The position numbers were made by a program, and so were the translations under genes. From NCBI GenBank assembly GCA_943788985.1, contig CALSSJ010000005.1:64001-128000 (forward strand): DNA of 64,000 nucleotides. The letters run 5' to 3'. Under the pieces are notes generated by a model. It worked only from the letters and a program-made list of their open reading frames with translations, was not told the DNA's origin and made no database searches. Position 1 is the stretch's first letter; every line of letters starts with the position of its first letter. Origin of the DNA: an uncultured Lentisphaerales bacterium (GTDB lineage Bacteria; Verrucomicrobiota; Lentisphaeria; JABSQK01; UBA12247). This document shows positions 2-64,000 of this stretch, piece after piece.

Positions 2-3000
2 GAATTAACGATCGACCTCGGCACCGTCACTAACGTTTCCGACAACGATTCCAGCAATGACTACCTGCTAGTGGATTTCGACATTCAGGTACTGAACCAC
101 CCGTCGAACGAGAATGGTGCCCAGCGGTCGAACATTGCGCGCGTGGCCAGCGGCGGATTGCTCAATGAGCAGATTCAGGACATCAAAATCCTTGAGCCAT
201 TGCTGGATGTCACTGGCGAAATTCTATTTCCAAAACCAGCTGCAGATGTGGATGCGGGTGACTTGATTCAGTATCGTGTTGTGATCGAGCATACTGCGGA
301 TAGCAGTTCCGATGCCTTCGATGTCTCCTTTGCAAGCCTATTGAATGCGGCGGGGCCGGAACTGACCGTCGAGACGGTGCAAAGTTTTACGGCGAGTGCG
401 GGCGTCATTATTCTCGCTCCACTCAGCGTCGCCGTCGATGACACGAGCCTTTCGGCATCCTTTGACCTGCCGCTTGGTGAATCTGTAGAAGTGATCTTTG
501 ATGTGTTGGTTTCTGGCGTGATCGCACCCGGGCAGTCGCTGCTGAATGAGGCGACTGCAGATTGGGTTTCCTTGAAAGATAGCCCGCCGCAGTCCCGCGA
601 TGGCAGCGATGGGGTTGGGGGCTTGAACGACTATGTGGCAATGGCAACCCCGACGATCAACGTAGAGCCGCTTATGCAGCCCGTCGTACAGGCTGCGCCA
701 GGCACGTTGCGCATTGGTGAAACCGGCCATTTTTACGTGCGGGTCTGGCTCATTGAGGGGCCCACCGATCCGCTGGTCGTCACGCATCAGTTCACTGACC
801 AGACCTTTGTGCCGGGGACTCTTAGCATCGCTTACGGAACTTCCGGGATTGTCTCAGACTATCAGAATGAGCAAACAAGTGCAAGCAGCGCAACAAACAG
901 CCTCTCCGTATTGTTCGGTCGTGTGGTGAACCCACCCGATAACGACCCGTCCAACGACTACATTGACCTTGAGTACGATGCTGTTCTTGATAATGCTCCC
1001 GGAAACCAGAACGGTGTGGACCGAATCAGTACCATTATTGCGACAGATACCGTAATCCAGCAGCAGGCTGACACCACAGTGCGGGTGCTTGAGCCCGTCC
1101 TGGAACTTGCTGCGATCGTGACCCCAGATCCCGGCACTGTCGATGCCGGTGACGTGATTACCTTCCAGGCCACCATCTCCCATACAGTCGGCAGCGGATC
1201 TGATGCCCACGAGGTCGTGTTAGCCGCGAATGTCGACACCCGCATCGGTCGCATGGCCGTGACGAACATTGTCAATACAATCGTTACAGGCGGAGCCACA
1301 GTCACCGTGCCCACAGACATTGATCTCGATACTTACGGCCTGACTGGGCTCTATGAAATTCCCGTGGGGGGGGCGATTGAAGTGACCTTTCAGGCGGTTG
1401 TCAACGAAAACGTAAAGCCAGCGGATCTGCTGACTTCCTCCAGTGTCGCCACTTGGACGTCCTTGCCTGGCACCGTCACTGGTGAGCGTACCGGTGATGA
1501 CTCTGGCGGCGTGGATGATCATTTCCTCGAGGCGTCGATTGTCACGCCCGTTCGCGATGAATTGAATGCGGAGTTCGCAAGTATCCCGGATGGGATTTCG
1601 ATCGGCGAGGTGGTGACGATCGAAACTTCCGCACTTCCTATTGAGGGGGTAATCCCGAACGGCAGCGTCGAGATCGACATCCCGGACGGCCTCACCTTCC
1701 AGCCTGGAAGTATTACGGTGACTCCTGCATTTGCTGCTCCGATAGTGCCATTTGACGAAGGAACTGTTGGGATCAATGGGAATACGCTCACCATCCCACT
1801 GGGTCCACTCTTCAACCCGGGAGATAACAACGTTGCCAATGATCGGATCACGATCGGCTTGGATGTCGTCGCTGTGAATCTCCCGGCTAACCAGGACGGC
1901 CGCGCCTTGACCGTCGCCGCCCGGACTTTCTTGGACGGAGCCTTGCGCGGCCAGTTGAGCCACGATATTCTGGTGACAGAGCCCGAGCTTGAGGCAGTGA
2001 TTCAGACCATCGGAGCGCCCGATGCCCCGGACGCTGCGGATATAATCGGCTACGAAGTGATCGTCCGCCATGCCACATCGAGTACAGCGGCTGCATTTGA
2101 TGCAGACCTTCTAGTCACAGTGGATCCAACGCTCGGTCGCCTGGTTGCCACTCAAATCACATCCATCACACCCGAGGGCGATGCCACGATTGACACGCAG
2201 CCTGTGATTGGCGGCAGCGGAAGCATTCTGCAGGGATCCTTCGATATCCCATTGGGTGGCCAGATCGCTATTCGCTACGATGCCGTGATCCAGCAGTCCG
2301 TAGCCCGTGCCGACGCCCTGCAGACCGATGCTGCGTTAGATTGGTCGTCGCTCAACAGTGCACCACCCGGCGAAAGAACTGGCGACGACGGGGAAGTCGG
2401 TCTTAACGATTACGTCTCTTCATCGCAGCACATCCTGACAGCTTCAGGCCTGCCGCGTATCGACCACATTAACCCGCCGCTGACCGGACTGGTGGGGCAG
2501 ATTCTGCACTACGAGCTGCGCATTGATGTGATGGAAGGTAACACGCCGGCGGTTGAACTGCGCAACATCTTACCGACCGCACTGGCCTTTCAGCCCGGCA
2601 GTCTTGAAGTTCAAACCGGCTCGCTTGGCCTGCTGACTGGTTATGTGGACGAGGCTCAGCACCTGAGCCTGACAGGACAGGATCTCTTTGTGAATCTCGG
2701 GAATGTGTCCAATAATGCGGACAACAATCCCAACAATGATTTCATTACGGTTGAGTGGGATGTCATTGTTCTGAATAACATCTTCAATGATGACGGCACA
2801 GAGAAAACGAACATCGCCGCTGCGCACGTCGAAACGGTGCTGATCGACGTGGATGAGTTCGAGAATCTGGTGATTATTGAGCCGGATCTTACCCTGACTC
2901 ATACCAAGCTCAGCCCAGCGTCAAACATAAAGCTTAACAACGGCACAGCGGTGACCTATGAGCTAGAGATCAAACACACCGCAGACAGTAAGAACTCTGC

Positions 3001-6000
3001 CTATGATGTGCTCATTGAGGATGTCCTCGACGGTGCCTCCGGTTTCCTGTTGGTGGACAGCATTCTGAGCACCGGCATCAGCCCCGGAGTCGTGACCATC
3101 GTGCCTACAGGAGGAGAAGGAACCGGTACCTTGACTGGTACCTACAACATTCCGCTCGGTGGTTCCGTCACGATCGTGTTCACAGCCACCGTGCAGGATG
3201 GATTTACGCCCGGGCAGTCCTTCGACTCGGTCGCCACGCTTACCTGGAGCAGCTTGCCCGGGACCCCAGTCGGTGAACGTACCGGTGCAGGTGTACCTGA
3301 TCCCAACAACATTGACGACTATTTTGAGATCAGGACTGTATTCAGTGAGGGGGCCGAACCGGAAATCGGAGTCCTCGGCGGCGCGAACACCGGGCTGGCA
3401 CTGTTCGCAGGGCAGCAGACTGTCAGCCTTGCTGACAACACGGACTTTGGGCAGGTTCGGCGCGGTCAAGCGGGGCCTGTTCGATCCTATACCGTCCAGA
3501 ACCTCGGAGAAGGTCGCCTGGATACCACGCTTACCTTGCCAGCTGGCTATATGATCATTGATCCGTTGGCTGCGAACATCGCAGGCGGGGCCTCTGATGT
3601 CTTTACCATCCAGCTCGATTCTTCAGTCGCCGGCCAATTCAACGGCGACATCGTCATTGGCAACAACGATCTTGACGAGTCCCCTTTCCACTTTGCGGTT
3701 GCTGGGCTGGTTGTCGCCCCAAATATCACGGTGATCGGCAACGGCGAATCTATTGAAGATGGCTCGGTGGACTATTCGGTGGACGATCATACCGACTTTG
3801 GTGCGATTCGTCTGCACGAGACTCCGGTAACGCGTGTGTTCACGGTGCGCAACGATGGTGACGATCCACTCGCACTGGGGGCCGTAGGTGTGCCGCCGGG
3901 ATTCGAGCTACTCAGTGACCTGTCTGGCACGCTCCAGCCTGGCGGACTGACCACGTTCTCCGTGCGCGTGGACACGGGGAGCTTGGCCGAATACACCGGT
4001 ACAGTGACTTTCACCCATAGCGACGAGGATGAGAGTCCGTTCGACTTTGTCATTCATGGCCTGGTTTCGCAGCCGGAGATTGCAATCCTCGGTGGAGACA
4101 CTGGGCTGGAGCTGACGAGCGGTCAGCTCACGACTGCTGCTGCCGACGGCACCGATTTGGGGTTGGGCGTGCAGGAAGGTACCCGTGTATCTAGCATATT
4201 TACGATTCGAAACGATGGCGGTACGCCGCTTACGTTGGGCCCGTTCCCGGTTACGGCACCCTTTACCGTCACGACCACTCCGCCCCCATTCCTGGGGGCA
4301 GGTGAGACTGCCGAGTTGACCATTGAGCTAACAACTGATACGCCAGGCACCTATGGCGGCACCGTCACTGTCGCAAACGACGACCCAGACGAGAACCCCT
4401 TTACGTTCAGCGTAGCCGGTATTGTTGAGCCAGCGCCCTTTGTGTTCCTGAGCGTGGTCGGATCGCCAGTGTCTGAAAACCGCGGCACCGCGACCGTAAC
4501 TGCCAGCTTGTCGCAGGCAACTGGTGTAGCGGTAACCATCAACCTCAGCGTCGGCGGAACCGCGACCCCGGCGGACTACCTCATCACGGGCACCACAATC
4601 ATTGTCGAAGCTGGGCAAATCAGCAACAGCGTAGATATCGTGACTACGCGTGACACGGTCACCGATCCGGGTGAAACCGTGATCCTGGCGATCGATTCGA
4701 TGATGAATGGTCGTGAATCCTCACCGCAGCAGGTGACGATCACGATCACAGACGAGTTTCCTGCGGCTGTCACTTTGTATGTGGATCAAGGTGCCACAGG
4801 CAACAACACCGGTACCTCCTGGGCCAACGCATACCTCGAGCTGCAGTCTGCTCTAGACATCGCGCGTGCTGGTGACCAGATCTGGATGGCTGACGGCACA
4901 TACACGCCGGGCGCCACCCGCAGCGATAGCTTTGTGCTCATGGATGAGGTACGCATCCTCGGCGGTTTCGCAGGCAGCGAGAGTTCGCCAGATCAACGCA
5001 TCGCTGGCGCGCCCACCATTCTTTCTGGGGACATCGGCGCTCCGGGAGATTTCTCAGACAACGTCTATCACGTGGTGACAGCAACCGGCCCAGGGGATGA
5101 CTATATCTTGGACAGCCTCACGATTCGAGATGGGAATGCCAATGGTCCTGATTCAGCGGAGCAGATTGGCGGCGGTGTCTACCTTAATAACGCAAACCTC
5201 ACGATCACTAACTCTATCCTGACAGACTCGCGGGCTCTCGTCGACGGTGGTAATGGCTGGTTCGGTGCGCTGTCTCCTGTCCTGCTCAGCGACAGTACCG
5301 TCAGCAATGGTCAGGCCAACCGTGGTGCCGGTATTTTTGTCGCTGCAAATGTTCTGCGGGGCACCAATGTCACGTTCCTTGCCAACGTCGCTATTGGGGA
5401 TGGTGGCGGCCTCTATAACGGCAGTGGCACCGAACTGACCGGCGGTTCTTTCTCCGGCGACCAAGCAGCCAACGGCGGCGGAATTTTCACGGTGAACTCT
5501 GCGGCGACTCCGGATCTTTTGGTGGATGGCGTAAGCTTTTCTGGGACGTCCGTCAGTGGTGGTGGTGGCGGCATTTTCATTGCTGGCGGCACAGTCGTTG
5601 TCGATAACTCTAGCTTCGATGGCTGCTCCGCGGGCAGTGGGGCAGGGATCCAGACTAGTAGCGGTGTGCTGACGTTGATCCGCAGTTCCTTCACCAACGG
5701 CGGCGCGGTATCTGGCGGCGGTGTGCAGCTCTCAGGTGGCACTGCAACTCTCGATTCGATCTCCTTCGACGGCAACACCGCGACCCAAGGTGGCGCCTTG
5801 GCTCTGTCCGGCGGCAGCGCAACCATAAAGAACACGCTCATGACCAACAACACCGCTGCCAACGGTGGCGCGATCTATGCAGGGGCTACGCTGGCGGTCG
5901 ACAACGCAACTTTCGCTTCGAACTCAGCAACAGACAGCGGTGGTGCCCTCTACATTAGCGCCGGTAACACGACTGTCGAAAACAGCATTCTCTGGTCTAA

Positions 6001-9000
6001 TACTGGCACCGCTCCTGCCGCTACACTCGTAAGCGGCAGTCTCTCCTTCGCCTACAGCGCAGTTCAGGGCTCTGGAGGTTCCGGCTCTTGGGCGGGCCCC
6101 GGTACTGACCTCGGCGGAAACATCTCTGCGGACCCGCAGTTCATCGATGCTGCGAACGGGAATTATGAGCTTACTCCCGTGGGCCCGGCCGTCGATGCTG
6201 GTAACAACGCGCTGGTCCCGGCCGCGACACTGACCGACCTAGCGGGTGCTCCGCGCTTTGTCGACGACTTGAACACGCCTGATACCGGTGCTGGAAGCGC
6301 GCCGATTGTAGACATGGGCGCACTTGAAATGCCGCAGTCTCCATTGGCGTCCATTGGTGACTTTGTCTGGTTGGATGAGAATGCCGATGGCATTCAGCAG
6401 CCCGCCGAGTTTGGTGTGAAGGGGATTCCCCTAGATCTACTGAATAGTCTAGGGCAGGTGATCGACACGACCCTCTCAGGGAATGAGGGTGAGTACCTGT
6501 TCGAGGATCTAATCGCTGGGTCATACCAGGTCCGTGTGCAGAACAACGATCGCCCAATCTCCAATCCGGGTGAGGGCAGCGATGATGCTCTGGACAGTGA
6601 CTTTGACCTTGACACCGGTCTGAGCCCGTTCCTCGTCATCACGCCAGGGCTAGAACTGCACTCGGTGGACGTTGGGCTGCGGGTTGGGCCGATTCCGGTC
6701 GCTTGGCGCCTGCCACAAAATGTGAATATCGTTGATAACAGCTTGGACACCTTTGGCCATACACCGCCAGGCTGGGACGCCGGTGCCAACTCCCAGAGTT
6801 ACCTCCGCGGTGATGGCTACGCCCAGACGCTTGTTCAAGAGACCAATACGACCCGTGCCATTGGCCTGGGCCTCCCCAACCATATTCAAAGTCGGTCACA
6901 GATCCAGTATGCTGCCGTGCTCGACAGCACTGGTAAGTTCATCGTCTATGAAGGCACTGCCTTCCGCGGCGAGTTCGGTACGTATGAATCAGGAGATATT
7001 ATTCGTGTGCAAGTCGCTGGCCAGGTTGTTACCTACTGGGTAAACTCCGATCTGCGCTACACGTCCAACGTGCCTGTCGGAGTGCCTGAATTTGGCCTGG
7101 TGGTTGAGGCCGCATTCACATCGCCCAACGCGACACTGTTTGACGTGCGCCGTAGCGCGCCACAGCCGATTATCGACGAATACTTTGTCGAAGACGATGA
7201 TTCCAGTGATCCAAGCTTTTCTAACGGCGATACCCTTACCATCCAATTCAGCGGCAATACCAACAAGCCAGGCGGTGATGGGGTTCAGGACCGAACAGCA
7301 GTCGACCTCATGTTTGCGTTCAGTGAGCCGCTGGGGGCCAGCTACTCCGGGCAGTGGGTAACTGCAGATGCCTTCCGCATTACGATTCTGGACATTACAG
7401 GAGGCAGCATCAATCTCGGCAGCGCCACGGTCACCCCGACTGCAATCGTCCCCATCCTCGACGAGTCAGAAGGCTCCCGCCGTGCCCAGCACGAATCCGA
7501 TGCACTTACGGGAAGTTTTGGTTCGCGCGCCGGCATTCTCATGCCGATCGAGTGGGTTGAGTATGACCCCGAAATCGCGGTGAATGGCACGGATATCACG
7601 CGGACAGATGACACTCGCAAGGGGTTCATCGAAGCACTCTCCGCGCATTGGATGCCGGGCCCGCAGACATTCGTAGAGACCACAGTTCTGCAGATGGACG
7701 AAACACGGGCTCTGGGATTGAACTCAAGTAATTCGCTAGGCTCTGCCCTGAACGACATCGATTACGCTCTGTACCTTCGACCGGCTAACGGTGAGTACCG
7801 CCTGATGAAGCGCAGCACTGTCGAATACATTAGCACCTACTTCCCGGGAGATCGGTTCCGGCTTGAAACGGATGGAGATACCATCTCTCTAATTCAGAAC
7901 GGTGTGTTTCAGCACAGCTTCACCGATGACGTCACCTACCCGCTGTTCGTCGATGGCGTGCTGTTGGAAACCGGGGCGACTATTGCGGACGTCACCATGA
8001 TGCCCGTAGCTCCCAATATCATACAGGTTTTGTGCTCGGATCCGGATGAGTCTTCCCCTGCTGTCGACGTGGGTGATCTCATCACGATTTCCTTCGACGG
8101 CGACACCAATCAGGTCCTCGGCCCCGGCACCCTCAGCAAAGACCAGGTGGACTCGATCCTGACGAGTTCTGCCGTTCTTGGTGCTGACTACACCGGCCAG
8201 TGGCTCGACGGCAAGAACCTACAAATCACAGTGACCAACGCCTCTGGCAGCACGGTGGCCTTGGGCACCGTGTTTACGCCAACCGGTCTTCCGCCTATCA
8301 CCCATGAAGCAGGTTCGCCAGCGTCGCTGGTCTCTGGCGCGCTGATTGGAAATTTCGGCCTGCAGTATCCGCTGGGGATTCCTGTAACTTGGCAGAGCCC
8401 GATCAATGTGGAAGTTGACGGGACCACTCTCGTCAAGACCTCCGCCAACAACAACTTCGATGCCGGAGCCACCGGTACACAGTTGTTTACGCAGGGAAAT
8501 CACTTTGTTTCCGCCACAATCAACGACGCCACGCAGATGCGCGCTATTGGCTTTGGTGATGCCACAGACTCCGGTGCTGCCATCACTGACATTCTTTGGG
8601 GCCTGCGCGTTCGTAGTGATTTCGGGGCGATCGTCGAGAATGGCCTGATCGTCGGTAACATCGGTGCAGTCGCCGATGGCGCGGTGATCAAGGTCGAGAT
8701 TCGCGGCAGTCAGGTGATCTACGTGGTGGATGGTGTGGACCGAGGCGTTTCACCGACCGCGATCGGCGCCGGAGACTTTCCATTGCGTGTTGAATCCTCG
8801 CTGCAGGCTTTTGCCGCCACCTTGATCGATGTCCGTCGCAGCCTAGTCAACGGCTCTCGTACGACATCTTCCGACAGCGCGGTCAGCTTTGCTGGGCAAG
8901 GAGCGGTTGCGAACTCCGCAAATGTTTACTACCTGCCGTTGCAACCAGGCTGGAACCTAGTTTCGTTGCCACTGGAGCCTGCCGTTTCCACAGCAAGCGA

Positions 9001-9349: not shown

Positions 9350-9397
9350 GCTGGCACTCCGCCGAAAAGCAGATAGCTGTGCGAGGCCGCTCACCGA

Positions 9398-10901: not shown

Positions 10902-10915
<14 letters not shown>
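9398..10915 (+). CDS. Multi-pass membrane GT-C fold glycosyltransferase (PMT/ArnT-like)
   Basis: N-terminal TM followed by LWFDE, NNHILYS and QMRGY motifs; many hydrophobic segments. Confidence 0.7.
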
Positions 10916-12070
<1,155 letters not shown>

Positions 12071-12074
<4 letters not shown>

Positions 12075-28473: not shown

Positions 28474-28538
28474 GCTCCTTCCGCGCGAACGACTACAGTT
28501 CTCGGATTCTGTTGAATTCACCCCTGCCTGAACAGACC

Positions 28539-39851: not shown

Positions 39852-39952
39852 TGGTATGCGACGCAAAAAGATTTCCGTCCTACGCGTTACAGCATCGGGA
39901 TTTTTTCGTCTGTCTACATATCCAGTTCATCACACCACACAGGACACTTAGC

Positions 39953-45595: not shown

Positions 45596-45614
45596 ACTCT
45601 ATTCTTCAGTGTAC

Positions 45615-48794: not shown

Positions 48795-48878
48795 ACAAAG
48801 ACCACCCGTACTACTACAAGAATTCGCTGGTGTTACGATTCAACCGGGAAAGCCGTGGAATAGCGCTATAGTAACGGC

Positions 48879-49319: not shown

Positions 49320-49367
49320 CCCATCGGGCTGCTTAACTCGGAGGGCCGGAATCCGGCTCACAGTTCC

Positions 49368-50359
<992 letters not shown>

Positions 50360-50363
<4 letters not shown>

Positions 50364-53659: not shown

Positions 53660-54903
53660 CGTTTCCTTCGCCGCTTCTCGATCTGTGCTTCAAGATACCC
53701 TAATTCCTTCCGTGCCCGCGAAACCCGTGGGTGCTCTCGATCCGGCACCATCTCCACGATTCGCAGAAATGCCGCCCTGGCCAGCTCCAACTCCCCAAGC
53801 TTGCGGTGCGTCTGGCCCCGAAAGGTCAGATCCTGCAATTCCTTGTCCAAAAGATTCTGTGCTTCCCGCTTCAGCATCAGCGCCTTCGCGTAGTACTCCG
53901 GCCGGTTATCCAGATCAGAAACCAACTGCAGCACATGGCTGAACTCCTCAATCGCCAGATAGACATTCGGGGTATTCACATCTCGCTCGGCAAACAGCCG
54001 CTCGCCGTGGGTGAACCGGCGATGCGCGCTTTCCAGCAACTCCTCACGGGAGATCGCAATCGCCGCCAGATCCAAGTGCGACTCCGCAAATCCGCTCAGT
54101 TCTGTCGCGACAATCTCGAAATCCGGCTCAGCTGGCGAGTTGATGTAGGCTACATGGTTGCCCTTGCGGCCCTTCCGTACGGTCAGCTGGGCAATCTGCG
54201 TCCGACTCCCCGTGCCGCGCACTGCTGGCGTTCGCAGCGCCAGAAAACTCTCTTGGAAGACGATACTCTCCAGCTCAGCCAATTGCTCTGGTGACAGGAG
54301 CTTCTCGCGCTCGAACTGCCTTTCATTGGCCAGGTCATCCACCGACGCGCTGAGCGTGCCCCGGTCCAGCTCGAGATAGAATCGAAACACATTCTGCGGC
54401 GTAACCTGCAGCGTCTCGTATCGCAACATTAGGTGCGTGGCGTTCTCCGGCACAGCCGAGACAACCGCTGGCGGCGGCGCGCTCTGGCGCAATCCCACCG
54501 CCAGGCAGACAATCACCAGCATCAACACGAGTACGCCTGCCAACAGCGGCACGCGGTGTCGCTTGCTTATCAGCTTTGTCTCCTGAGAAAACTCCGCAGC
54601 TGGGAGCACGACGCTATCGTGGCTGGTAAATACGAAGCGCTTGCTACCGGTCTGGATGACGTCCCCTTCCGAGAGCATCGCGCTATCCCTTACCGGCTGG
54701 CCATTCAGCGCCGAGCCGTTCGTACTCCCCAGATCCCGCAGCCGCCAGAGACCGTCTACCTGCTCAATCTTCGCGTGGTAGCTGGACACATCGGGGTCTT
54801 CCAGCACGAGATCGTTATCGTTCTCGCGGCCAATGCAGCAGCCAAGTGGTGGCAATGTCACCACCTCGCCACGCAGCTTGCCCTCAATGTGAACCAGCTT
54901 CAT
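53656..54903 (-). CDS. FHA-domain membrane protein
   Basis: IGRE..ND....D..VS.YHA, DLGSTNG; single TM; helical C-terminus. Confidence 0.9.
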   Translation of the reverse strand: MKLVHIEGKLRGEVVTLPPLGCCIGRENDNDLVLEDPDVSSYHAKIEQVDGLWRLRDLGSTNGSALNGQPVRDSAMLSEGDVIQTGSKRFVFTSHDSVVLPAAEFSQETKLISKRHRVPLLAGVLVLMLVIVCLAVGLRQSAPPPAVVSAVPENATHLMLRYETLQVTPQNVFRFYLELDRGTLSASVDDLANERQFEREKLLSPEQLAELESIVFQESFLALRTPAVRGTGSRTQIAQLTVRKGRKGNHVAYINSPAEPDFEIVATELSGFAESHLDLAAIAISREELLESAHRRFTHGERLFAERDVNTPNVYLAIEEFSHVLQLVSDLDNRPEYYAKALMLKREAQNLLDKELQDLTFRGQTHRKLGELELARAAFLRIVEMVPDREHPRVSRARKELGYLEAQIEKRRRKR

Positions 54904-54972
54904 GCCGAAGTCCGACGGTCTTGGAGTCGTGTGGGTTCCGCCTGAGCGGCGGGTTGCGGGAACATGTCGCGG

Positions 54973-55437
54973 TCAGTCGGAGATGGTAACCTGCATCACC
55001 ACATCGGTGCCCGGGCGATCACCGCGACCGGTCTGGGTGGTGCCGATCTTGTTGACCACGTCCATGCCTTCCGCGACTTTGCCGAATACTGCATGCTTAC
55101 CATCCAGATGCGGCGTCGGCCCGAGTGTAATGAAAAACTGCGATCCGCCCGTGTTGGGGCCCGCGTTTGCCATCGACAAAACGCCTGCCTCATCATGCCG
55201 TAGCTGCGGGTGAAACTCGTCCTGAATCTTGTAGCCAGGTCCGCCAGTGCCTGTCCCTGTGGGGCAGCCGCCCTGGATCATGAAGCCACTGATGACACGG
55301 TGGAAAATCAGGTCATTGTAGTAGCCTTTTTCCGCCAGCGTGATGAAGTTCTCAGTCGTGATCGGTGCCAGATCCTCGTACAAGTCAATTGTGAACTTGC
55401 CGAGGGTCGTTGTGAATGTTGCGGTGCGGTTCGCCAT
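54973..55437 (-). CDS. Cyclophilin-type peptidyl-prolyl isomerase
   Basis: [36 protein letters not shown]. Confidence 0.97.
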
Positions 55438-55502
55438 GTCGTCTCCTTGTTAGTGTATTGGTGGGGCACTCTACCCGTGCCAGTGTCTTGCGTCAACGGG
55501 AT

Positions 55503-57077
55503 TTACCCTGCTTGCGCGATCCCTGCCTCCAAACGTGCCAGTACGCGCTCGCGTCCCAGCAGTGCCGCAGTCTCGTAAATGCCCGCGCCTACGCTTTGCC
55601 CGGTGAGCGCGACACGAATCGGTTGATTCAGCTTGCCCTGCTTCATTTCCGCCGCTTCCGTCACACCGTGAATTGCGGACTCAATGCCCGCAACGTCGAA
55701 GGCCTCGAGTCCGGAGAAAGCAGCGGCTAAAGCCCGCAGGCGATCTGCCACTCCGTCCTTTGCCAGGTGCTTCCGCACGGCCTTCTCGTCATAAGTCAGC
55801 GTCTCCACGAAGAACGGAGCCCAGCCTGCCACATCCGTAAACAGCTTTGTCCGCGTTTGCAGCAACAGTGCCACTTGGTCAAAAAACTCCCGCTCCCCGC
55901 CAGCCCAATCCTCATCCGCAGCCGCCGCCCAGGCAGCATTTGCGAACTCCGCAAACGGCAGGTCCGCCAGATAGCGACCGTTGAAATCGAGCAGCTTGCG
56001 AAAGTCCATCTGTGCTGGCGAGCTGATCACCCGGTCCAGTGCAAACGCTGCGATCAGCTCCGGCCGCGGCATATACTCGACATCGTGGCCAGGAGACCAG
56101 CCCAGGAGTGTCAGGTAGTTGAACAGTGCATCCGGCTGGTAGCCCTTTGCCCGGAAGTCTCCGACGTAAGCATCGCCATCGCGCTTGCTATATGGCCGTC
56201 CCTGCTGATTCACAATCATCGGCAAATGGGCAAATTGCGGCAATTTCGCACCCAAGCTTGCGTACAAGAACACATGCCGAAACGTATTCTCCACATGGTC
56301 GTCACCCCGAATCACGTGGCTGATTTCCATGGCGATGTCGTCGCACACATTCGCCAGGTGAAACACCGGGTTTCCATCGCTGCGGACGATCACCTGGTCA
56401 CGCATGCTGTCCAGGGGCTTGCTCAAATGCCCTTTCACTAAGTCCGTGAACTGCACTTCCCGGCGTTGAAAAACCATGCGGACGGCACCTGCCACTTCGT
56501 GCGCCACTGTCCCGTCCAGGATCCCGCCTACCTCATCATCCAGCCCCAGCAGCAGCGTGCCCGCTGCATTGTATAGCTGCAAGCCCTTGAAGCCCGCCAG
56601 CGTCCCTTGCTGCGGCGCTGGCTTGCCCTTGCGTGTCCGCAGGGAGTAGCTCACGCCCGTCTGGTCGACGCAAACCGGCTCGTCCGCATGCAATTCCAGC
56701 TCGACGCTCTCCGTATCCACGACGAATGGCAATCCAGCTGTGTTCCAGGGAAACCGTAGCAACGTTGCCTCGCCGCCATCCCCTTTGGCAAAACGATACG
56801 CATGCCCGCCTTCCAACAGCGACTCTGCCGCCGTCAAGTGGGCCTCCCGCTGGGCGCTCTGGTAGACCGGCTCGCCATCAAAGGTGAGGCCCATCCACTC
56901 CATGACCCCAAACAGCGCCTGCACCGCCTCGTCTGTCGACCGCTCCCGGTCTGTGTCCTCTATTCGTAACAGAAACTCGCCGCCGCAACTCCGGGCTGCA
57001 AGCCAATTAAAAATCGCCGTGCGAATATTGCCTATGTGAATATTTCCAGTCGGCGAAGGGGCAAATCGAACGCGCAT
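55503..57077 (-). CDS. gltX: Glutamate--tRNA ligase with an atypical insertion
   Basis: RFAPSPTG..HIGN, LRIEDTD, HVIRGDDH, YSKR, P.RVALTG; anticodon domain present. Confidence 0.93.
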   Translation of the reverse strand: MRVRFAPSPTGNIHIGNIRTAIFNWLAARSCGGEFLLRIEDTDRERSTDEAVQALFGVMEWMGLTFDGEPVYQSAQREAHLTAAESLLEGGHAYRFAKGDGGEATLLRFPWNTAGLPFVVDTESVELELHADEPVCVDQTGVSYSLRTRKGKPAPQQGTLAGFKGLQLYNAAGTLLLGLDDEVGGILDGTVAHEVAGAVRMVFQRREVQFTDLVKGHLSKPLDSMRDQVIVRSDGNPVFHLANVCDDIAMEISHVIRGDDHVENTFRHVFLYASLGAKLPQFAHLPMIVNQQGRPYSKRDGDAYVGDFRAKGYQPDALFNYLTLLGWSPGHDVEYMPRPELIAAFALDRVISSPAQMDFRKLLDFNGRYLADLPFAEFANAAWAAAADEDWAGGEREFFDQVALLLQTRTKLFTDVAGWAPFFVETLTYDEKAVRKHLAKDGVADRLRALAAAFSGLEAFDVAGIESAIHGVTEAAEMKQGKLNQPIRVALTGQSVGAGIYETAALLGRERVLARLEAGIAQAG

Positions 57078-57194
57078 AGCAAGCATCCTCTCAACATGAT
57101 AAAATCAGCAACTTAGCACGACTCGCGCCAACTGAGACGGGCCTTCCCCGTCCAGCCCTGTCCGGAAATTCTCACGCATCTGGCGGTATCTAGA

Positions 57195-57222
57195 TTGACA
57201 GTAAAACAGTTGAACGTACTTT
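57195..57222 (+). promoter_or_regulatory. Candidate sigma70 promoter
   Basis: TTGACA-16 nt-TACTTT in the AT-rich region divergent from gltX. Confidence 0.45.
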
Positions 57223-57335
57223 TGCTTATCAAAGCGGGATTGCGGTTCACACGCGCGGTATCACAAAAACTTCCTTTTGAGGCGAAATATCAAGCAAGCA
57301 CCGGCCACGCTAACTCGGTTTATGTATAGTTACTG

Positions 57336-58394
57336 ATGGCAAATTGGACAAAATCACGGCCCAACGTCTGGGAAACTCGTTCTCCGGATTTAGAAACGCT
57401 GTTGGCCTCCACTATTCTGGCAGTTTGTATACTGCTGGGAGCACATAATTTTCTGCGTATCCCATCGCCCTGGCCTACTCTGCTGGGGTTGGGCGGTTTT
57501 ATGGTGATTCTGACCATCTCAATCTGCGCAATTCGCACGGTGACTTTGGATACGAAACGCTGCATTTTGCGGAGCCGTTGGCTGTTAGGAATGACCGAGG
57601 TGCTGAAGTTCAAGAGCGGTATGATCCGGGTCCGCTGGATCTCCGCGTTCGGCCAGTATCGGGCAGCTGTTCAGCTTAAGATAGGTCGAAAGGAGCGCAC
57701 TCTTTTTACGGCCAGTGATCCTATTTCGGCATGGCGTCTCGGGTACCGAATAGCTCAGGACATGGGCGTGGACTTCATTGATGACCTGTATGCTTCGTGT
57801 CGTGTTCGGTCTTCACGCGCGTTATTTTCTGACTGGAGGCCGGTCGATATTGGCCCGCGGAGAAACGCGCCACGGCACCTCTGGTGCAAGCTTGCGGAAG
57901 AAGACGGCGAGTTTGTTGCCGTCTCGCCTGCCCAGTATTATTCCTTTCCAGCAGTAGCCTCGCTGGCTGTGTTTTCGACTCCGTTTAGTGTTGTGATCGC
58001 GGCGTGGTGCGCCTCTCATGAATACTACCTGCTTGCCGCTCCTGCCATCATGGCGACCGTCTGTGGCGCTGTCTGTTTCGGGGCCTACGGGCTGGAGCGC
58101 TGGCGTCGGCTGTTTGACCCATTCTATGACGAGATCCTCGCCGTCAGTGCGCAGCGAGTGCTGATTGAGCGCCGCTTTTTCGGATTTGTGCACAAGGTAG
58201 AGGTGGCCAAGTCCACCATGCGCTTGTTCCGTGCCGTTATTGTCGACGAGCCCTACGTCAAAAGCATCGTCGCAATCGGGGACTCCGATGGCATCACCTT
58301 CGGCGCGAACCTATCCGAACATGAGCTGCGCCACATTCACGGCCGCGCCTGTGACGTCCTCATGGAACCTCGGCAGAGCTCTCGCCGTGAGTGA
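57336..58394 (+). CDS. Hypothetical membrane protein
   Basis: Two TM-hairpin plus soluble modules; overlaps the next gene start. Confidence 0.6.
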   Translation: MANWTKSRPNVWETRSPDLETLLASTILAVCILLGAHNFLRIPSPWPTLLGLGGFMVILTISICAIRTVTLDTKRCILRSRWLLGMTEVLKFKSGMIRVRWISAFGQYRAAVQLKIGRKERTLFTASDPISAWRLGYRIAQDMGVDFIDDLYASCRVRSSRALFSDWRPVDIGPRRNAPRHLWCKLAEEDGEFVAVSPAQYYSFPAVASLAVFSTPFSVVIAAWCASHEYYLLAAPAIMATVCGAVCFGAYGLERWRRLFDPFYDEILAVSAQRVLIERRFFGFVHKVEVAKSTMRLFRAVIVDEPYVKSIVAIGDSDGITFGANLSEHELRHIHGRACDVLMEPRQSSRRE

Positions 58395-59637
58395 CGGCGC
58401 GGCGGTGCTTGCCCCATGGCGCGAATCTGCGCCCCTTTTCGATAAGCTCACAGCCAAGGAGCGGGTGTTCTTGGCGGAAGCTGGCGAGCGTCTCGCCTTC
58501 ACCCATCAGGAACGCCGACAGCTCATCGAGATGGCGCGGGACCTGCAGCATTGGGGCGCAGGGTCCCTCGGGGATTATTGGCCCAAAGAAAAGCCCAACG
58601 CCCGCAAAATCCTGCTCCGGGATCTCCGGCTGCGCATTGGCCAGTTGCGGGCAGGTGAGAAGGACTTCAGCGATCCCCCACTGCTCAAACCCGTAAAGCT
58701 GAGCAAAGAGCTGGCAACCACCGAGCGCAAGATCCATGGCATGTGTCCAGTGGCGTCTCCGGAGACCGTTTGTTGCAACCTGCGGACTATCGACACGGTT
58801 GAGAACTGCGGATTTGGCTGTAGCTATTGCACTATTCAGACTTTCTACGGCAAGTCCGTCACCTTCGACGCGAACCTGCCAGAGAAGCTGCGGGCCTTGA
58901 GCGAGACCCTCGACCCCACGCGAAACTATCACTACGGGACCGGCCAGTCTTCGGATTCGCTGATGTGGGGTAATCAACACGGTAATCTTGACGACCTCTG
59001 CTCGTTTGCCCGCGAGAACCCAAACATCCTGCTCGAGTTCAAAACCAAGAGCAAGAACGTCTCCCATTTCCTTAAGTCGGAAGACCTGCCCCGTAACCTG
59101 GTCTGCAGCTGGTCACTGAATCCTCAGGCGGTGATCGACAGCGAGGAACATTTCACTGCGTCACTCGACGAGCGGCTCCGTGCTGCCCGCGCCGTGGCTG
59201 ACCGCGGAATCGGCGTCTCCTTTCACTTTCACCCCATGATCGTCTACGATGGCTGGGAGAGCGATTACCCGGCTTTGGTCGAGCGCGTACTTGCGGAGTT
59301 CGCACCCCATGAGATTCTATTCATATCGATGGGCTCTGTGACCTTCATCCGCCCCGTGATCCGCGCTATCCGCGAGCGCGAGCGCCCCACCAAGATGCTG
59401 CAGATGGACCTGGTCCCCACGGCCAAGGGGAAACTCAGTTATCCCCCAGACCTCAAAAAGCAGCAGTTTCAGACGTTGTATCGCAGTTTTGCACCTTGGC
59501 ACGACCAGGTCTTTTTCTACCTGTGTATGGAGCAGGCGGAGTTTTGGGAGTCCACATTCGGCGCATACTATCCGACCAACGAGGACTTCGAGCACGCGCT
59601 CATGTCCGCCTCTCGCAGTAAACTTGGGCTTTCTTGA
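58387..59637 (+). CDS. Spore photoproduct lyase-family radical SAM protein
   Basis: CPVAS..CCN, C.F.C.YC (CGFGCSYC), GTGQSSDSL, LEFKTKS, WSLNP, HFHPM, FYLCME. Confidence 0.85.
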   Translation: MSDGAAVLAPWRESAPLFDKLTAKERVFLAEAGERLAFTHQERRQLIEMARDLQHWGAGSLGDYWPKEKPNARKILLRDLRLRIGQLRAGEKDFSDPPLLKPVKLSKELATTERKIHGMCPVASPETVCCNLRTIDTVENCGFGCSYCTIQTFYGKSVTFDANLPEKLRALSETLDPTRNYHYGTGQSSDSLMWGNQHGNLDDLCSFARENPNILLEFKTKSKNVSHFLKSEDLPRNLVCSWSLNPQAVIDSEEHFTASLDERLRAARAVADRGIGVSFHFHPMIVYDGWESDYPALVERVLAEFAPHEILFISMGSVTFIRPVIRAIRERERPTKMLQMDLVPTAKGKLSYPPDLKKQQFQTLYRSFAPWHDQVFFYLCMEQAEFWESTFGAYYPTNEDFEHALMSASRSKLGLS

Positions 59638-59698
59638 ACTTGCTAGGCTCTGATTTACGGCTAGGTTCGCCCAACTTCCTAAATCTCCGCTGAGCATC

Positions 59699-61081
59699 AT
59701 GTCCGAACCAGAAGACATTCTCGCATACATCAACGACGAGCACCGGCATTACGGTCTGCAGCAGGTGAGTCAAGCTAACTCACTGAGCTACTTCCTGCCG
59801 CTGCTGCACGAATTGTTCAATGGTGCCGAGGCCAAGACCAAAGTCGTGTTTACCATTCTGCACGAGCTCATGACCGATGATCGCGTGCAATGGACTCGCG
59901 CCGAACTCGACGAGAAGTGCCACTGGGTGCGCGAGCGCCAGTGGGCCTACCTCCTGCAACGGATGACCTATGTCGGCTGGTTAGAGTTCTACCGGGAGTC
60001 CGGTAGCTACATGATCAGTGATAAGGGTGAAACCCTGATGCGGCTGCTCAGTCGTTTTTCTATGGGGGCCGAGCTGGTCGAGAACGAAGGTGCCGCGGTT
60101 GCCGAGATCGAGTTCAGCCTGCTGCTTAGCGCTACTGATGTCTCCGACCGGCTGCGCTTCCTGCGAAACCGCCTGCAGAAGCACATCTCCCGTGCCGAAA
60201 CCGCGCTTGAATCCCAGTCCGCGTATCTTATCCTTGAGATCTACGGGCAGCTCAAGTCCGCCTATCGCTGGGCAGAGCAGACCCGTACCACACTCGACCA
60301 TATCGACCCGGATGACGACGATACCGAGACGTGGAATGGGATCCGCGACATTCACGACTACCTGTCGCGCCTCCATGAACTGATCTCCGAGATGCAGCTG
60401 CGCCTCCAAATCATCCAGCGCCAGCAGATCGACATTGCCCAATATGGCCTGACCCAACTTGATTTTGATAACTTCCTAGTTAATCAGTCCGTGGAATCTC
60501 TCAGTGACCTGATTCGGCCCCATCTCCAAAAAATTCCCCACAGCTTTCTGGCGATCGAAGCACACGTATTCGAGGAAGCGCGTGACATTTTTGAGCGAGA
60601 AGCTGGCGAGGAGGTGCCAGTGCGCGATTGGGACACCGACGTGCAAGAAGGCGAGGAGACCGGAGAGTCAGAACCTGCAGTCGAGTTGGAAGCCTTCACC
60701 AGTGCCCTGCAGCGCGCCCCCACATCGTGGGCCTCTGCCCAATCCGTATTTGCTGGCGCCGATTGGTCTAATGCTGCCTATCGCATGTCTCTGCTTACCC
60801 TGCTCGCCGATCGAGACGCCCGCTTCGACACCGGCGAACGCAGCAATGACCCAGTTGTAAATCTGCCAGTAGACGTCGTTTTCAGCGAAGATAAGCCACT
60901 CATTGCTGTCGAGGTCAACGACGAGACTTGGCAGATGACGCCCGGCGAACTGCGCCGTCGTAACCCCCACCCCAGGAGCCACAAGTGGAACTTGACGAAC
61001 AGCCTCAGGATCAGCTGCAGGAGATCTGCTCGCTGCTTATCGCCAACGGATACATCCCCAAGGATCAATTCCAGCAGTTGA
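59699..61081 (+). CDS. MksF/JetA-like (kleisin-type) condensin subunit; the true stop may be ~60995 (homopolymer indel)
   Basis: N-terminal winged-helix-like segment (W.R.EL..L.RM..GWL..Y.IS..G), long helical middle, acidic linker, C-terminal domain; paired with an MksE-like gene. Family assignment is from recalled similarity only. Confidence 0.55.
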   Translation: MSEPEDILAYINDEHRHYGLQQVSQANSLSYFLPLLHELFNGAEAKTKVVFTILHELMTDDRVQWTRAELDEKCHWVRERQWAYLLQRMTYVGWLEFYRESGSYMISDKGETLMRLLSRFSMGAELVENEGAAVAEIEFSLLLSATDVSDRLRFLRNRLQKHISRAETALESQSAYLILEIYGQLKSAYRWAEQTRTTLDHIDPDDDDTETWNGIRDIHDYLSRLHELISEMQLRLQIIQRQQIDIAQYGLTQLDFDNFLVNQSVESLSDLIRPHLQKIPHSFLAIEAHVFEEARDIFEREAGEEVPVRDWDTDVQEGEETGESEPAVELEAFTSALQRAPTSWASAQSVFAGADWSNAAYRMSLLTLLADRDARFDTGERSNDPVVNLPVDVVFSEDKPLIAVEVNDETWQMTPGELRRRNPHPRSHKWNLTNSLRISCRRSARCLSPTDTSPRINSSS

Positions 61082-61623
61082 TGTACGATGATGAATTGCG
61101 CGCCCGCGTCGAGAACCGTCTCGACCTTGTCGGCCTCAAACTGCTGCAGAACGTTTACAGCGCCAACTGGGGCGTCGGGCTCAGCGACCGCACCAGCAGC
61201 GACGAGCGCCTCGAGTGGTCCAACAACTTTGGCCTCGAACGTGGCGCCATGGCCCTGCTCCTTATCATCTGGGTGAAGCTGATCCTGCCCAAAAGACTCG
61301 CCCAAGAGGAGCGCCAGCCCGAGGACGGCACCGTGGCTTCCCTCTTTCCGCAGATCGAAACCGTTCCCCAGCCTCGCGTGAGTGTTAATCGTGACCAGAT
61401 TGTTGCGGAGTTCGCAGATCTGCTCGGCGGCATCACCCTCGTCGGCAAGTACCTCGCCCAGTTGTCGCGGGGCCCCAAGCTCATTCGCTGCCACGGGGGC
61501 CTGGTCGAGGAAGGCCCGCTGCTTTCCCTCGTGGTCGACGAAACCAAGCTTGGCGACGAACTCCGCCGCGATGTCCTGCTCAGTGTGCTCAAGCGCGAAC
61601 ACAGCGCTGGGTACCCGCGCTGA
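60985..61623 (+). CDS. MksE/JetB-like (KITE tandem winged-helix) subunit
   Basis: AGGAG RBS + GTG; RL..VGLKLL.N.Y, SNNFGL....ALL..IW..LILPKR, EGPLL.L motifs. Confidence 0.6.
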   Translation: MELDEQPQDQLQEICSLLIANGYIPKDQFQQLMYDDELRARVENRLDLVGLKLLQNVYSANWGVGLSDRTSSDERLEWSNNFGLERGAMALLLIIWVKLILPKRLAQEERQPEDGTVASLFPQIETVPQPRVSVNRDQIVAEFADLLGGITLVGKYLAQLSRGPKLIRCHGGLVEEGPLLSLVVDETKLGDELRRDVLLSVLKREHSAGYPR

Positions 61624-61631
61624 CTTAAGTC

Positions 61632-62129
61632 ATGATCGTCGGAATCATCAGCGATAGCCATGACCACCTGCCGAACCTGCGGCAGGCAATGGCAGACTTA
61701 CAAAACCGCGGTGCCAGCGCCATCATTCACTGTGGCGACCTCAGCGCCCCCTTCGTCACGAAAGAGCTTGGCGCCTTTGCCGGGCCCGTGCATACCGTCT
61801 TTGGCAACAATGACGCCGATCGCTTTCTCGCGCAGAAACTCGCCCCGGAGAACGTTCATCACCACGGTGAATTCGGCTTCATTGAGCTCGACGGCAAGCG
61901 TCTTGGCTTCACCCACTACGCCGAGTACGCCCGCGGCTTTGCCGCCAGCGGCCAGTGCGATGCAGCATTCTACGGCCACAGCCATGAGCACGCGCATGAG
62001 CTTGTGGCGGATTGCCTTGCACTTAATCCAGGCGAGCTTCTCGGGATGAAGGGGCCGCCAGCATTCTGCACCTACGATACGCAGACTGATCGTTTCGAGC
62101 ACATCATTTTCCCGCACCAGAGGTGGTGA
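61632..62129 (+). CDS. YfcE/MJ0936-family metallophosphoesterase
   Basis: ISDSHD, HCGD, FGNND, THY, GHSH, NPG. Confidence 0.93.
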   Translation: MIVGIISDSHDHLPNLRQAMADLQNRGASAIIHCGDLSAPFVTKELGAFAGPVHTVFGNNDADRFLAQKLAPENVHHHGEFGFIELDGKRLGFTHYAEYARGFAASGQCDAAFYGHSHEHAHELVADCLALNPGELLGMKGPPAFCTYDTQTDRFEHIIFPHQRW

Positions 62130-62135
62130 TTCGCT

Positions 62136-64000
62136 ATGCCAGACGACCCCAAAAATCCCTACCAAGGCCCCGCAGGTGGCTGGGGAGCACTTGCCGCCAG
62201 CGCCGAGATTATCACCCGCGGAAAAAAGCCATCGCGCGTGGCCTCGGCCGCGTTGCTTCGGGTGGTAAACCAGAAGGACGGCTTCGACTGCCCCGGCTGC
62301 GCCTGGCCTGATCCTCACGACCACCGATCTGCCTTCGAGTTCTGCGAGAACGGCGTCAAAGCCGTCGTTTGGGAATCCACGTCTAAGCGCGTCCGACGCC
62401 GCCTTCTTTGCCAAGCACACCGTTTGCGAACTCCGCAAAAAAGAGCGACCACTGGCTGGAGTCGCAAGGGCGCCTGGTCAATCCGCTCGCCTACGACCCC
62501 AAGACCGACCACTTTGCTCCCATCCCCTGGTCCGAAGCCTTCGAGACGATCGGCGCGACCCTGCGGTCGCTGGACGATCCCAACCAGGCGGCCTTCTACA
62601 CCTCCGGCCCCGCGCCAGCAACGAAGCGGCGTACCTCTATCAGCTCTTCGTCCGCATGTTCGGCACCAACAACCTGCCGGGACTGTTCGAACCTGTGCCA
62701 CGAAGTCCAGCGGCGTCGGGCTCAACCCAGACCATCGGAATTGGGAAGGGGACCGTCTCGCTCGCGGACTTCGATGAGGCCGATGCCATCTTTGTCATCG
62801 GCCAAAATCCAGGCACAAACCACCCTCGCATGCTCAGCGCCCTCCAGGGAGCGGCCAGACGCGGGGCCCAAATCGTGGCCATCAACCCACTCGTCGAGCG
62901 CGGTCTCGAGAAGTTCCTGCATCCGCAGGAGGCCGGGGCCATGCTGTGCAACAAGGCCACCCCGATCGCCACTGCCTATTTGCAGCCCACCATCGGCGGC
63001 GATCTTGCCCTGCTCACCGGTATCTGCAAGCACATTCTTGCCGCCGAAGACGCAGCACCCGGGACCATTCTGGACCATGCCTTTATCGATGAGCACACCA
63101 ACCAGTTTTGCGGAGTTTGCAGAATCCGTACGTGCAGCAGACTGGGAGACCATCGAGACCCAGTCCGGATTGCGGAGTTCGCAAATCCAGGAGGTGGCGG
63201 ACATTTACTTGCAGGCCAAGTCTGTGATCTGCTGCTGGGCCATGGGCCTGACGCAGCACACCCACGGCGTCGCCACCATCCAATTCGTGGTGAACCTGCT
63301 GCTCATGCGTGGCAACATTGGCCGTCCAGGAGCCGGCGCCTGCCCCGTGCGCGGGCACAGCAACGTGCAGGGCAATCGGACCGTGGGCATCAACCACCAC
63401 CTGCCTCCTGCCTTTGGCGAGAAAATGGAGAAGCTCTACGACTTCAAAGCCCCCACGACGCATGGCTACGACGTAGTCGAGGCCATCAAAGCCATGAATG
63501 ATGGCCGCGTACGCGTGTTTATGGCACTGGGCGGTAACCTGGTGCCGGCCTCCCCGGATACCGAACTTACTGCTGCCGCGCTTGAGAAAACTGAGCTGGC
63601 GATTCATGTCGCGACCAAGCTAAACCGGACGCATTTGGTGCACGGGAAGCAGGCGCTCATTCTGCCCTGCCTCGGGCGGACCGAAATCGATCAGCAGGTC
63701 GCCGGTCCACAGGTCGTGACTGTTGAAGATTCGATGGGTGACGTCCATGCGTCCGAGGGCAGAAACGCCCCCGCTGGGGAGCAGTTGCTCTCAGAAACCG
63801 CGATCGTTGCGAACATCGCAGCTGCCACGCTCCCGCCGGGGAAACCCGATTGGCGCGGCTTCGTGGCGGACTACGCCACGATTCGCGACCACATCGAGAA
63901 AGTCCTGCCTATCTTCAAGGATTACAACGCCCGTATCGCCGAGCCTGGCGGCTTCAGTCTCAAGAATACTGCTCGCGACCGTGAGTGGATCACCGGCACG
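62136..64000 (+). CDS. FdhF/YdeP-family molybdopterin oxidoreductase, multiply frameshifted, running off the window
   Basis: AGGWGAL, NQKDGFDCPGCAWPD, FEFCENG; then FGTNNLP, GQNPGTNHPRML; then WAMGLTQH, PVRGHSNVQG, LPCLGRTE in successive frames. Confidence 0.88.

Follow-up and report, generated by a model that had tools for sequence, protein, structure and literature searches.

A hyper-abundant spaced palindrome in Lentisphaeria genomes and its possible role as a self mark

Results

A two-armed word of fixed spacing

The genome under study, a marine member of the Lentisphaeria (G000), carries a quasi-palindromic DNA word that is hyper-abundant and independent of reading frame. The exact form, TGCGRASTYCGCA, occurs 850 times and the general form, TGCG-N5-CGCA, 1,749 times, densities of ~190 per Mb (core) to ~380 per Mb (all spacers). 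The word is not a contiguous 5- to 8-bp one; it has two arms, a core GCG-N5-CGC and a spacer of strictly fixed length, as the same arms at spacers of 0 to 4 and 6 to 11 bases gave 142 to 205 sites each. Half-sites on their own were not enriched (0.78–1.16), and flank information ended 1 to 2 bases outside the word. The explanation that we favour, tentatively, is that the word serves as a position-independent "self" mark read by a dimeric protein on duplex DNA.

The window, meaning the whole 64-kb stretch of DNA that was analysed, holds 20 exact copies of the word, 11 on the plus and nine on the minus strand, whereas 100 dinucleotide shuffles averaged 0.02 copies and never held more than one. 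All 20 had been reported in a first-pass annotation with correct coordinates and strands, and a recount returned its figures for a preceding T (17 of 20), a following A (14 of 20), and location within ORFs (19 of 20). Three copies lie in a 3092-residue surface-protein ORF (71–9349), at 1567–1579 on the plus strand (middle GAGTT, read as NAEFA) and at 8908–8920 and 9007–9019 on the minus strand (VANSA and FANSA). The remaining plus-strand copies lie in an amidohydrolase gene (10902–12074; site 11360–11372, VAESA), rmlD (13489–14385; 14088–14100, VAEFA), a glycosyltransferase gene (14360–15217; 15057–15069, LRSSQ), the minus-strand ORF 27796–28413 (28000–28012, LADSA), a gene for a TPR protein (28512–30257; 29460–29472, CGVRN), menA (50360–51298; 50446–50458, FAESA), the start of a minus-strand PEGA-domain ORF (52337–53659; 53643–53655, MRTPQ), a spore-photoproduct-lyase-like ORF (58231–59637; 59292–59304, LAEFA), ORF 60985–61623 (61404–61416, VAEFA, frame uncertain, with assembly indels close by), and a piece of an FdhF/YdeP-like gene (62656–63501; 63171–63183, IAEFA). 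Minus-strand copies occupy ORF 25283–26389 (25687–25699, DADSA), the same TPR gene (29741–29753, FADSA), an ankyrin-repeat ORF (34804–35637; 35348–35360, VRTPQ), a sulfatase ORF near its 5' end (39773–41539; 40006–40018, VADSA; the gene caller places the start at 40040), gltX (55503–57086, minus strand; 55941–55953, FAEFA), and a second FdhF/YdeP-like piece (62136–62777; 62425–62437, LRTPQ, frame uncertain, with assembly indels). The sole intergenic copy, at 19467–19479 on the minus strand, sits in a 46-bp gap. The annotated identities of rmlD, menA, gltX, and the sulfatase were upheld; the ORF that had been called imuA (27796–28413) has no family match and adjoins a DinB/IMS-like gene.

TGCG-N5-CGCA occurs 27 times in the window, while spacers of 3, 4, 6, and 7 give one to four sites. 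Perfect-arm variants have the middle AACAT (3571–3583, and again at 21976, 48696, and 63808) or GATTC (34120–34132), with further perfect-arm sites at 11828 and 57525; a mismatch breaks an arm at 27962–27974 (plus strand) and in the copies at 14370 and 63109. All four one-mismatch copies annotated earlier (14370, 27962, 34120, and 63109) were thus present. The consensus given with them is real but narrower than the true motif, being one genome's dialect of the class-level GCG-N5-CGC. The word is no assembly artefact, since contigs of public runs contain it as well. Window positions 53500–63400 were present in 20 runs from 10 studies, one run of which may be the assembly source. When contigs of four runs (four studies) were compared to positions 44001–63900, none of the 40 substitutions listed (of 42) fell within the seven sites of that segment, and a 1-base deletion at 62437 affected the A run after the site and left the word unbroken.

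Origin by substitution at the DNA level

Coding sequences of G000 contain 750 of the 850 core sites, in both orientations, as compared to 6 to 19 in synonymous shuffles, which preserve the proteins, and 0 to 3 in codon shuffles. A Markov test gave 424 observed sites against 0.5 (order 4) and 6.3 (order 6) expected. All six frames are occupied genome-wide, as the first-pass annotation had claimed for the window, where the exact copies use five (no CELR). The encoded peptides are inflated 3- to 20-fold (classes of 885 versus 243–276, 139 versus 3–11, and 136 versus 8–18). The shuffles, the Markov models, and the use of six frames indicate a frame-independent, strand-neutral signal at the DNA level, since neither codon nor protein bias explains the counts.

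Comparison of G000 with orthologs in the near-closed genome G025 showed that the word arose through point substitution, wherever genes tolerate it. Sites were gapped in one of 30 cases (control windows, 4.4%), identity was 41% at site residues versus 55% overall, and the site position was common to both genomes in one of 29 cases; positions were also seldom common to different families. The word is written in even where amino acids had to change. The word starts with TG and ends with CA, as do many transposon ends, but the low gap frequency and flanks that are uninformative past 1 to 2 bases already largely refute an origin as footprints or remnants of mobile elements.

Patchy distribution and dialects

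The word was found in 42 of 251 genomes of the class, at 600 to 1,900 copies; 147 genomes from other classes of the phylum showed no enrichment. The core GCG-N5-CGC is constant, while the arms (TGCG or CGCG) and the spacer vary by lineage: the spacer is free in G018 and G022 and of A/T in G124, and G197 and G187 have CGCG arms. Presence is patchy inside families f14, f16, f17, and f24. The word was not found in 60- to 80-kb samples of the near-closed genomes G020, G150, G196, and G004, although such negatives may hide dialects, given that G197 and G187 look word-free at first sight yet carry the CGCG form. Candidates for such hidden dialects are the f11 genomes, with an excess of ~1.5-fold, and G016 and G046, with counts of 18 to 32 versus 1 to 3.

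Layout along the chromosome

The origin-to-terminus profile was taken on G025, G000 being in 48 contigs with noisy skew. Site density in 42 samples of 20 kb showed no trend along the origin–terminus axis, with quartile means of 3.3, 3.1, 2.5, and 3.4 (rho 0.03, p 0.83), a sampling that a gap of less than ~140 kb could escape. Replication polarity was absent, the G/C split at the centre being 140/115 where the skew is positive and 153/149 where it is negative. The flat profile, together with the lack of a detectable ParB_N in four of five class genomes (G000, G199, G197, and G141), which also counts against that family as a candidate reader, disfavours a regional chromosome-organising site of the matS, NBS, SBS, or parS kind, one of three functions proposed in the first-pass annotation.

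An architectural dimer acting chromosome-wide (a nucleoid-bridging or SMC-loading factor), with weak selection on density and not on position, is an unlikely but substantial alternative. The dimer-type anatomy with its fixed spacer agrees with such a factor, as does the presence of the word on both large G025 contigs and both replichores, and the missing ParB_N makes another loader conceivable. Promoters and terminators are neither favoured nor avoided (134 sites per Mb in convergent, 131 in tandem, and 144 in divergent intergenic gaps). However, spacing is clumped, not regular, and without helical phasing (10.5-bp Rayleigh p 0.78), and the genome tolerates stretches of 30 to 87 kb that lack core sites, as in contig C12, where 87 kb of ordinary lower-GC genes contain none. 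The four near-closed genomes whose samples lacked the word also argue against this factor, as does the finding that no common XRE, LysR, AP2, or HTH_17 protein follows it. Density climbs with GC3, the lowest sextile having 63 and the highest 302 sites per Mb. Singleton genes (235 per Mb) are richer in sites than paralogous genes (100–178 per Mb), and the word is therefore not a simple core-genome signal.

A phage and a CRISPR-like repeat carry the word

The 28 kb of a Mu-like phage hold 14 sites (control, 0), a density above that of G000, and an early gene has pairs in tandem at a distance of 18 bp; among 96 viral loci picked by exact match, only one was clearly enriched. In G124, a CRISPR-like repeat of 36 nt, present in 13 copies and matched by no Rfam family, has a stem-loop made of the host's dialect word. 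Plasmid searches returned no Lentisphaeria record among the matches listed. The phage would suit a defence-linked mark, with a site-bound protein that licenses host DNA or protects it against a host nuclease and phages that mimic the word, and patchiness within f14, f16, f17, and f24 would suit a defence gene. This explanation is improbable, in that the host has long site-free stretches and a temperate phage, as a prophage, would also gain sites passively. The G124 repeat likewise recalls a single-stranded DNA or RNA hairpin (a REP- or CRISPR-repeat-like substrate), which is very improbable in view of enrichment at the 5-base spacer only, intragenic sites in both orientations, and arms extended by at least 3 pairs in only 34 of 850 sites.

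Search for a reader protein

No reader was identified among the families and proteins tested. LysR, prompted by the T-N11-A shape, was absent from G000, G124, and G017; five word-rich genomes had no common XRE/HTH_3 ortholog; and of the five genomes (among 80) with AP2, two were word-poor. An HTH_17 protein with 61% identity between G000 and G025 was full-length in eight word-poor genomes and absent from most word-rich ones. A small-protein screen covered G000 proteins with a homolog in sampled loci (180 passed the filters and 58 were scanned), a reach of ~1/6 of a second proteome.

Among uptake genes, PilT was present in all 67 and ComEC in 76 of the 80 genomes of the class that were scanned, both equally in word-poor ones, and HhH_3 (45 of 67) does not track the word. 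The DHH-fold partner of a second ComEC occurred in eight of 80 genomes, all word-rich, but was absent from G000, G025, and G028. ComEC was not found by profile or tblastn in G000 (an assembly 83.6% complete), nor in the word-rich G115 and G197.

Methylase sites of the SfiI/BglI/MwoI type have the same 4-5-4 geometry, in which two mirrored GC dinucleotides lie 8 bases apart. A HIP-type origin, in which an orphan methyltransferase for GCG-N5-CGC acts with methyl-directed repair (the G-meC model of Elhai) and dialects reflect changed target-recognition domains, is nevertheless quite unlikely. None of three methylase families was shared by five word-rich genomes: PF01555 was missing from G000, G199, and G025; PF00145 was present in three of the five, with only 25 to 39% identity to one another; and PF02384 matches were unrelated, ordinary HsdM-like proteins. 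The single-mismatch spectrum of the arms also had no standout C-to-T hot spot. In favour of a methylase, portions of PMC4390886 describe alternate HIPs that swap in for HIP1 along with a matching methylase.

Discussion

The anatomy of the word makes it highly probable that a two-fold symmetric protein reads both arms on duplex DNA and that changes in this protein produce the dialects. Given such a reader, the chances seem evenly balanced that it favours word-bearing DNA during transfer between cells. The favouring would act at uptake, at protection of incoming DNA, or at recombination into the chromosome; site-creating alleles would then spread by molecular drive, as models of uptake sequences describe and as has been suggested for HIP1, and long-resident genes and temperate phage would fill up while recent islands lag. 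Of the three functions in the first-pass annotation, an uptake or self-recognition tag appears to fit best, the methylation-driven palindrome having no methylase in common among the families compared. The self-mark reading draws on the enrichment and fixed spacer, the peptide and ortholog comparisons, the dialects, the GC3 trend with the site-free genes of C12, the flat profile, the phage, the CRISPR-like repeat, and the wide occurrence of PilT and ComEC. Several observations count against a self mark: none of the uptake genes follows the word, ComEC was not found in three word-bearing genomes, terminator-type gaps show no concentration of sites, singletons are richer than paralogous genes, and only one of the 96 viral loci is clearly enriched. 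Every supporting pattern would also fit weak selection for a chromosome-wide binder.

To our knowledge, no known uptake sequence is palindromic. The sites matS/MatP, NBS/Noc, SBS/SlmA, parS/ParB, and ram/RacA are palindromic 12- to 16-bp dimer sites, intragenic and frame-blind, and matS shares the 5-3-5 layout seen here; they number tens to ~150 and are regional, whereas the present word has 600 to 1,900 copies and is flat in G025. SfiI/BglI/MwoI-type interrupted palindromes have the 4-5-4 geometry around GC-N7-GC, but the word is over-represented, not under-represented, and a cognate methylase was not found in the three families. It differs from Chi, KOPS, and AIMS in lacking replication polarity, and from REP, RPE, and MITE elements in its coding location, unconserved flanks, and rarity of gaps.

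Like HIP1 (GCGATCGC) and the alternate HIPs, the word is a hyper-abundant, GC-rich, intragenic palindrome that starts with GCG and ends with CGC (PMC4390886; PMC13756078; PMC6604393). HIPs, too, are replaced by lineage variants and have been proposed as a watermark in DNA transfer, and a passage in PMC6604393 places HIP1 in a CRISPR repeat of Synechocystis. In contrast, HIPs are contiguous 5- to 8-mers, the present word spanning 13 to 15 bp with a variable 5-base spacer, and they reach ~500 to 2,500 per Mb according to parts of PMC4390886; the shared methylase is the third difference, none having been found here in three families and five word-rich genomes. The word resembles DUS and USS in a copy number of hundreds to thousands, in the inflation of peptides and the location at poorly conserved residues (as described in parts of PMC2817400), in a scarcity in foreign-looking DNA, and, for the Neisseriaceae DUS, in dialects around a constant core (in sections of PMC3630211). 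It differs in its two-fold symmetry and in terminator-type gaps, which are not enriched here, whereas USS often occur there as inverted pairs (passages of PMC5217627); ComEC was also not found in the G000 assembly, and no ComP-like reader was identified.

A broader reading, possible but doubtful, is that of a self-DNA recognition system independent of those in Neisseriaceae, Pasteurellaceae, and cyanobacteria, with a dimeric reader, an unmethylated spaced palindrome, and dialects of arm and spacer that co-evolve with the reader across Lentisphaeria. The force of such a system would have sufficed to alter hundreds of peptides in each proteome, and a transposable phage and a CRISPR repeat would have copied the word. 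No description of the word was found in the literature outside subscription papers and bioRxiv supplements (zero papers for the exact 13-mer), and Lentisphaerae and Verrucomicrobia are unmentioned in passages and four supplements of PMC5217627 (2 of 125 TGCG rows).

Hyper-abundant intragenic words have experimentally tied roles in few bacterial groups, and the reason for the existence of HIP1 is still sought; the present word adds a case that is independent and differently built. It comes with a built-in comparative design, in that one family has word-rich and word-poor genera and sister genera spell the word differently, and full proteomes should expose the reader through its profile and co-variation with dialect. 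The identity of the reader would test whether such words originate from uptake drive, methyl-directed repair, or chromosome organisation. The word biases protein sequences in the genomes that bear it and provides a host-assignment mark for Lentisphaeria phages.

Genome-wide enrichment of a spaced palindrome

The 20 exact copies located in the window by the first-pass annotation were all recovered at its coordinates (0.02 expected from dinucleotide shuffles), with T before 17/20, A after 14/20, and 19/20 inside ORFs, as it had described. Four public runs from four studies match all seven sites in 44001–63900. The source assembly (G000; 4.58 Mb, 48 contigs, 83.6% complete) contains 663 exact copies and 850 copies of TGCGRASTYCGCA (core sites), while TGCG-N5-CGCA, the true unit of the signal (hereafter the word), occurs at 1,749 sites as compared to 142–205 at eleven other spacer lengths. 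The commonest middles are GAGTT (424), GAGTC (239), AAGTT (109), GAGAT (100), and AAGTC (78). Flanks carry nearly no information past one T and one A, and half-sites away from the word occur at expected frequency.

Among 3,918 genes called in this analysis, 750 of the 850 core sites fall within CDS. Ten synonymous shuffles preserving every protein gave 6–19 core sites and ten codon-order shuffles 0–3; the top word, observed 424 times, had Markov expectations of 0.5 (order 4) and 6.3 (order 6), so that the proposed enrichment holds genome-wide. The order-8 expectation was high (186) because that model learns the word itself. Core sites in CDS occupy all six reading frames, bearing out the claimed frame independence, but the window copies use only five phases, not the six reported. 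The word distorts the proteome: peptide classes A[EDKN][FS]A, C[EG][LV]R-x, and [LVM]R[ST][SP][QH] number 885 (vs 243–276), 139 (vs 3–11), and 136 (vs 8–18).

Turnover and placement of sites

In 127 ortholog pairs between the source genome and its relative G025, 1/30 source sites aligned to a gap (control windows gapped, 4.4%), residues beneath source sites showed 41% identity versus 55% overall, and position was shared by 1/29 source sites and 1/22 G025 sites. It follows that substitutions at positions able to tolerate them create the sites, which turn over, and that where an individual site lies is of no importance. Site density in the source genome rises with GC3 from 63 to 302 per Mb; conserved genes are sparser in sites (91 vs 199), as are giant repeat genes. 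The lower-GC genes of G000:C12:1-87000 (∼87 kb, 53–56% GC, nearly all on one strand) hold zero core sites, and this segment is probably a recent island. Site spacing in the source genome was clumped and showed no periodicity; no preference among intergenic classes was found, nor any replication polarity, in keeping with the reported lack of strand bias.

G025 comprises two large contigs (C1 and C2, 2.8 and 2.65 Mb; L123, L124, L195–L234) with one GC-skew switch each, which suggests two replicons or chromosomes; its main dnaA, at C2:714 kb, is a long way from the inferred origin. Across 42 segments of 20 kb taken from G025 at a 140-kb step, together holding 129 sites, counts showed no origin-to-terminus trend (rho 0.03, p 0.83). 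Regional distribution is a feature of the matS, NBS, SBS, parS, and ram systems, so this flat profile excludes them as models within the 140-kb step and speaks against a chromosome-organising site of the regional kind. Sites for a chromosome-wide architectural binder are an unlikely but serious reading. No ParB_N profile match was detected in four of five class genomes examined (G000, G199, G197, and G141).

Range and dialects

At least 15 core copies occur in 42/251 genomes of class Lentisphaeria (18/31 families), and the three largest sampled families (173 genomes) have 0–6 per genome; these counts are descriptions rather than tests, because kin are not independent. TTGCG-N5-CGCAA reaches 594 in the source genome (control 9) and at most 25 (control 10) across 147 genomes from the phylum's other classes. 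We assign the source genome to class Lentisphaeria: among the 80 loci listed, of more than 109 matched in a collection scan, the recurrent records bore the titles Lentisphaeria, Lentisphaerae, Victivallales, or Verrucomicrobiota, and 16S signatures are consistent with the assignment. Four of five examined records so titled contain 123–557 copies; a Verrucomicrobia subdivision 3 record contains 2.

Lineage-specific dialects came to light because the search pattern was widened. G018, G022, and G037 have 812–959 TGCG-N5-CGCA sites (controls 69–116) with an almost free spacer and only 8–13 core copies. G124 prefers A/T spacers, G025 has a loose spacer with extended T/A flanks, and G197 and G187 use CGCG arms (430–491 per strand vs 3–9). 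The common core is GCG-N5-CGC; the consensus first proposed is thus real in the source genome but only one spelling, relatives placing other arms and spacers round this core. Samples of the near-closed G020, G150, G196, G004, and G035 showed no GCG-N5-CGC excess. Because spacer length is fixed while spacer sequence varies by lineage, we infer reading on duplex DNA, where a dimer would contact the two half-sites, rather than a hairpin; hairpin or mobile-element origins jointly take what little probability the other readings leave.

Likeness to known systems and candidate readers

The word appears to work like HIP1 and DUS, yet by the features tested belongs to neither, being spaced where HIP1 is contiguous and symmetric where DUS is polar. 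Unlike HIP1, it has no common methylase that we could find among three families tested on five word-rich genomes, and a methylase-driven highly iterated palindrome is improbable. We found no description of the word in the open literature, and the passages and supplements searched of a survey of spaced motifs do not mention the lineage. Its evolutionary signature matches that of uptake sequences, as described in PMC2817400 and PMC3630211, and the watermark idea proposed for HIP1 in PMC13756078. We tentatively favor a transfer-linked self mark, a reading somewhat short of even chances; a defence-linked mark is quite improbable. Competence genes were found class-wide, and ComEC was not found in the 83.6% complete source assembly.

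Among families tested as putative readers, none tracks the word. A 139-aa HTH_17 protein (G000:C23:52769-53188) with a CxxC-like C-terminal part does not follow it; homologues in 15 other class genomes have 51–73% identity to the G025 copy. A second, longer ComEC (∼940–1,050 aa; regions including its partner gene, L265:3913-8811, L268:3684-8515, L263:2234-7047, and L267:5824-10970) is preceded by a gene for a ∼670-aa protein with DHH-type motifs and a C-terminal hydrophobic segment. This partner had no Pfam match, matched DHH phosphoesterases in the Atlas by structure (TM 0.73 by target), and is present in 8/80 genomes, every one word-rich; the pair may form a module dedicated to importing and degrading DNA. 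At L124:10515-14508 (G025:C2), comEC and an operon for an XPB-like helicase and DUF790 are arranged head-to-head.

Phage and CRISPR-like repeat

One clearly word-rich record emerged among 96 viral loci chosen by an exact 15-mer: IMGVR_UViG_3300022555_000207 (L178, L314), a Mu-like temperate phage (transposase, B protein, Gam, and head genes) with 14 sites in 28 kb against a control count of 0. Two tandem pairs of these sites, with an 18-bp separation, lie in an early gene. The richness of this phage in the word makes it a candidate phage of Lentisphaeria. A CRISPR-like array of 13 repeats ∼70 bp apart (L118:1-900, G124:C1) has a repeat whose stem-loop is the G124 dialect and which had no Rfam match; PMC6604393 reports that a CRISPR repeat of Synechocystis contains motifs related to HIP1.

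Assembly quality

Frameshifts about window 60962–62608 are assembly indels, a cluster of 1–3-base insertions absent from four public runs of four studies, and the split of the FdhF/YdeP-like gene is an assembly artefact. rmlA (window 12071–12960) is likewise split. The two 16S genes of the source genome (L001 and L002; C7 and C36) have only 96.7% identity with many indels, reflecting either long-read errors or two strains binned together. At G000:C10:313782-326850, a ∼336-bp unit is repeated in 39 tandem copies, often differing by one base in length.
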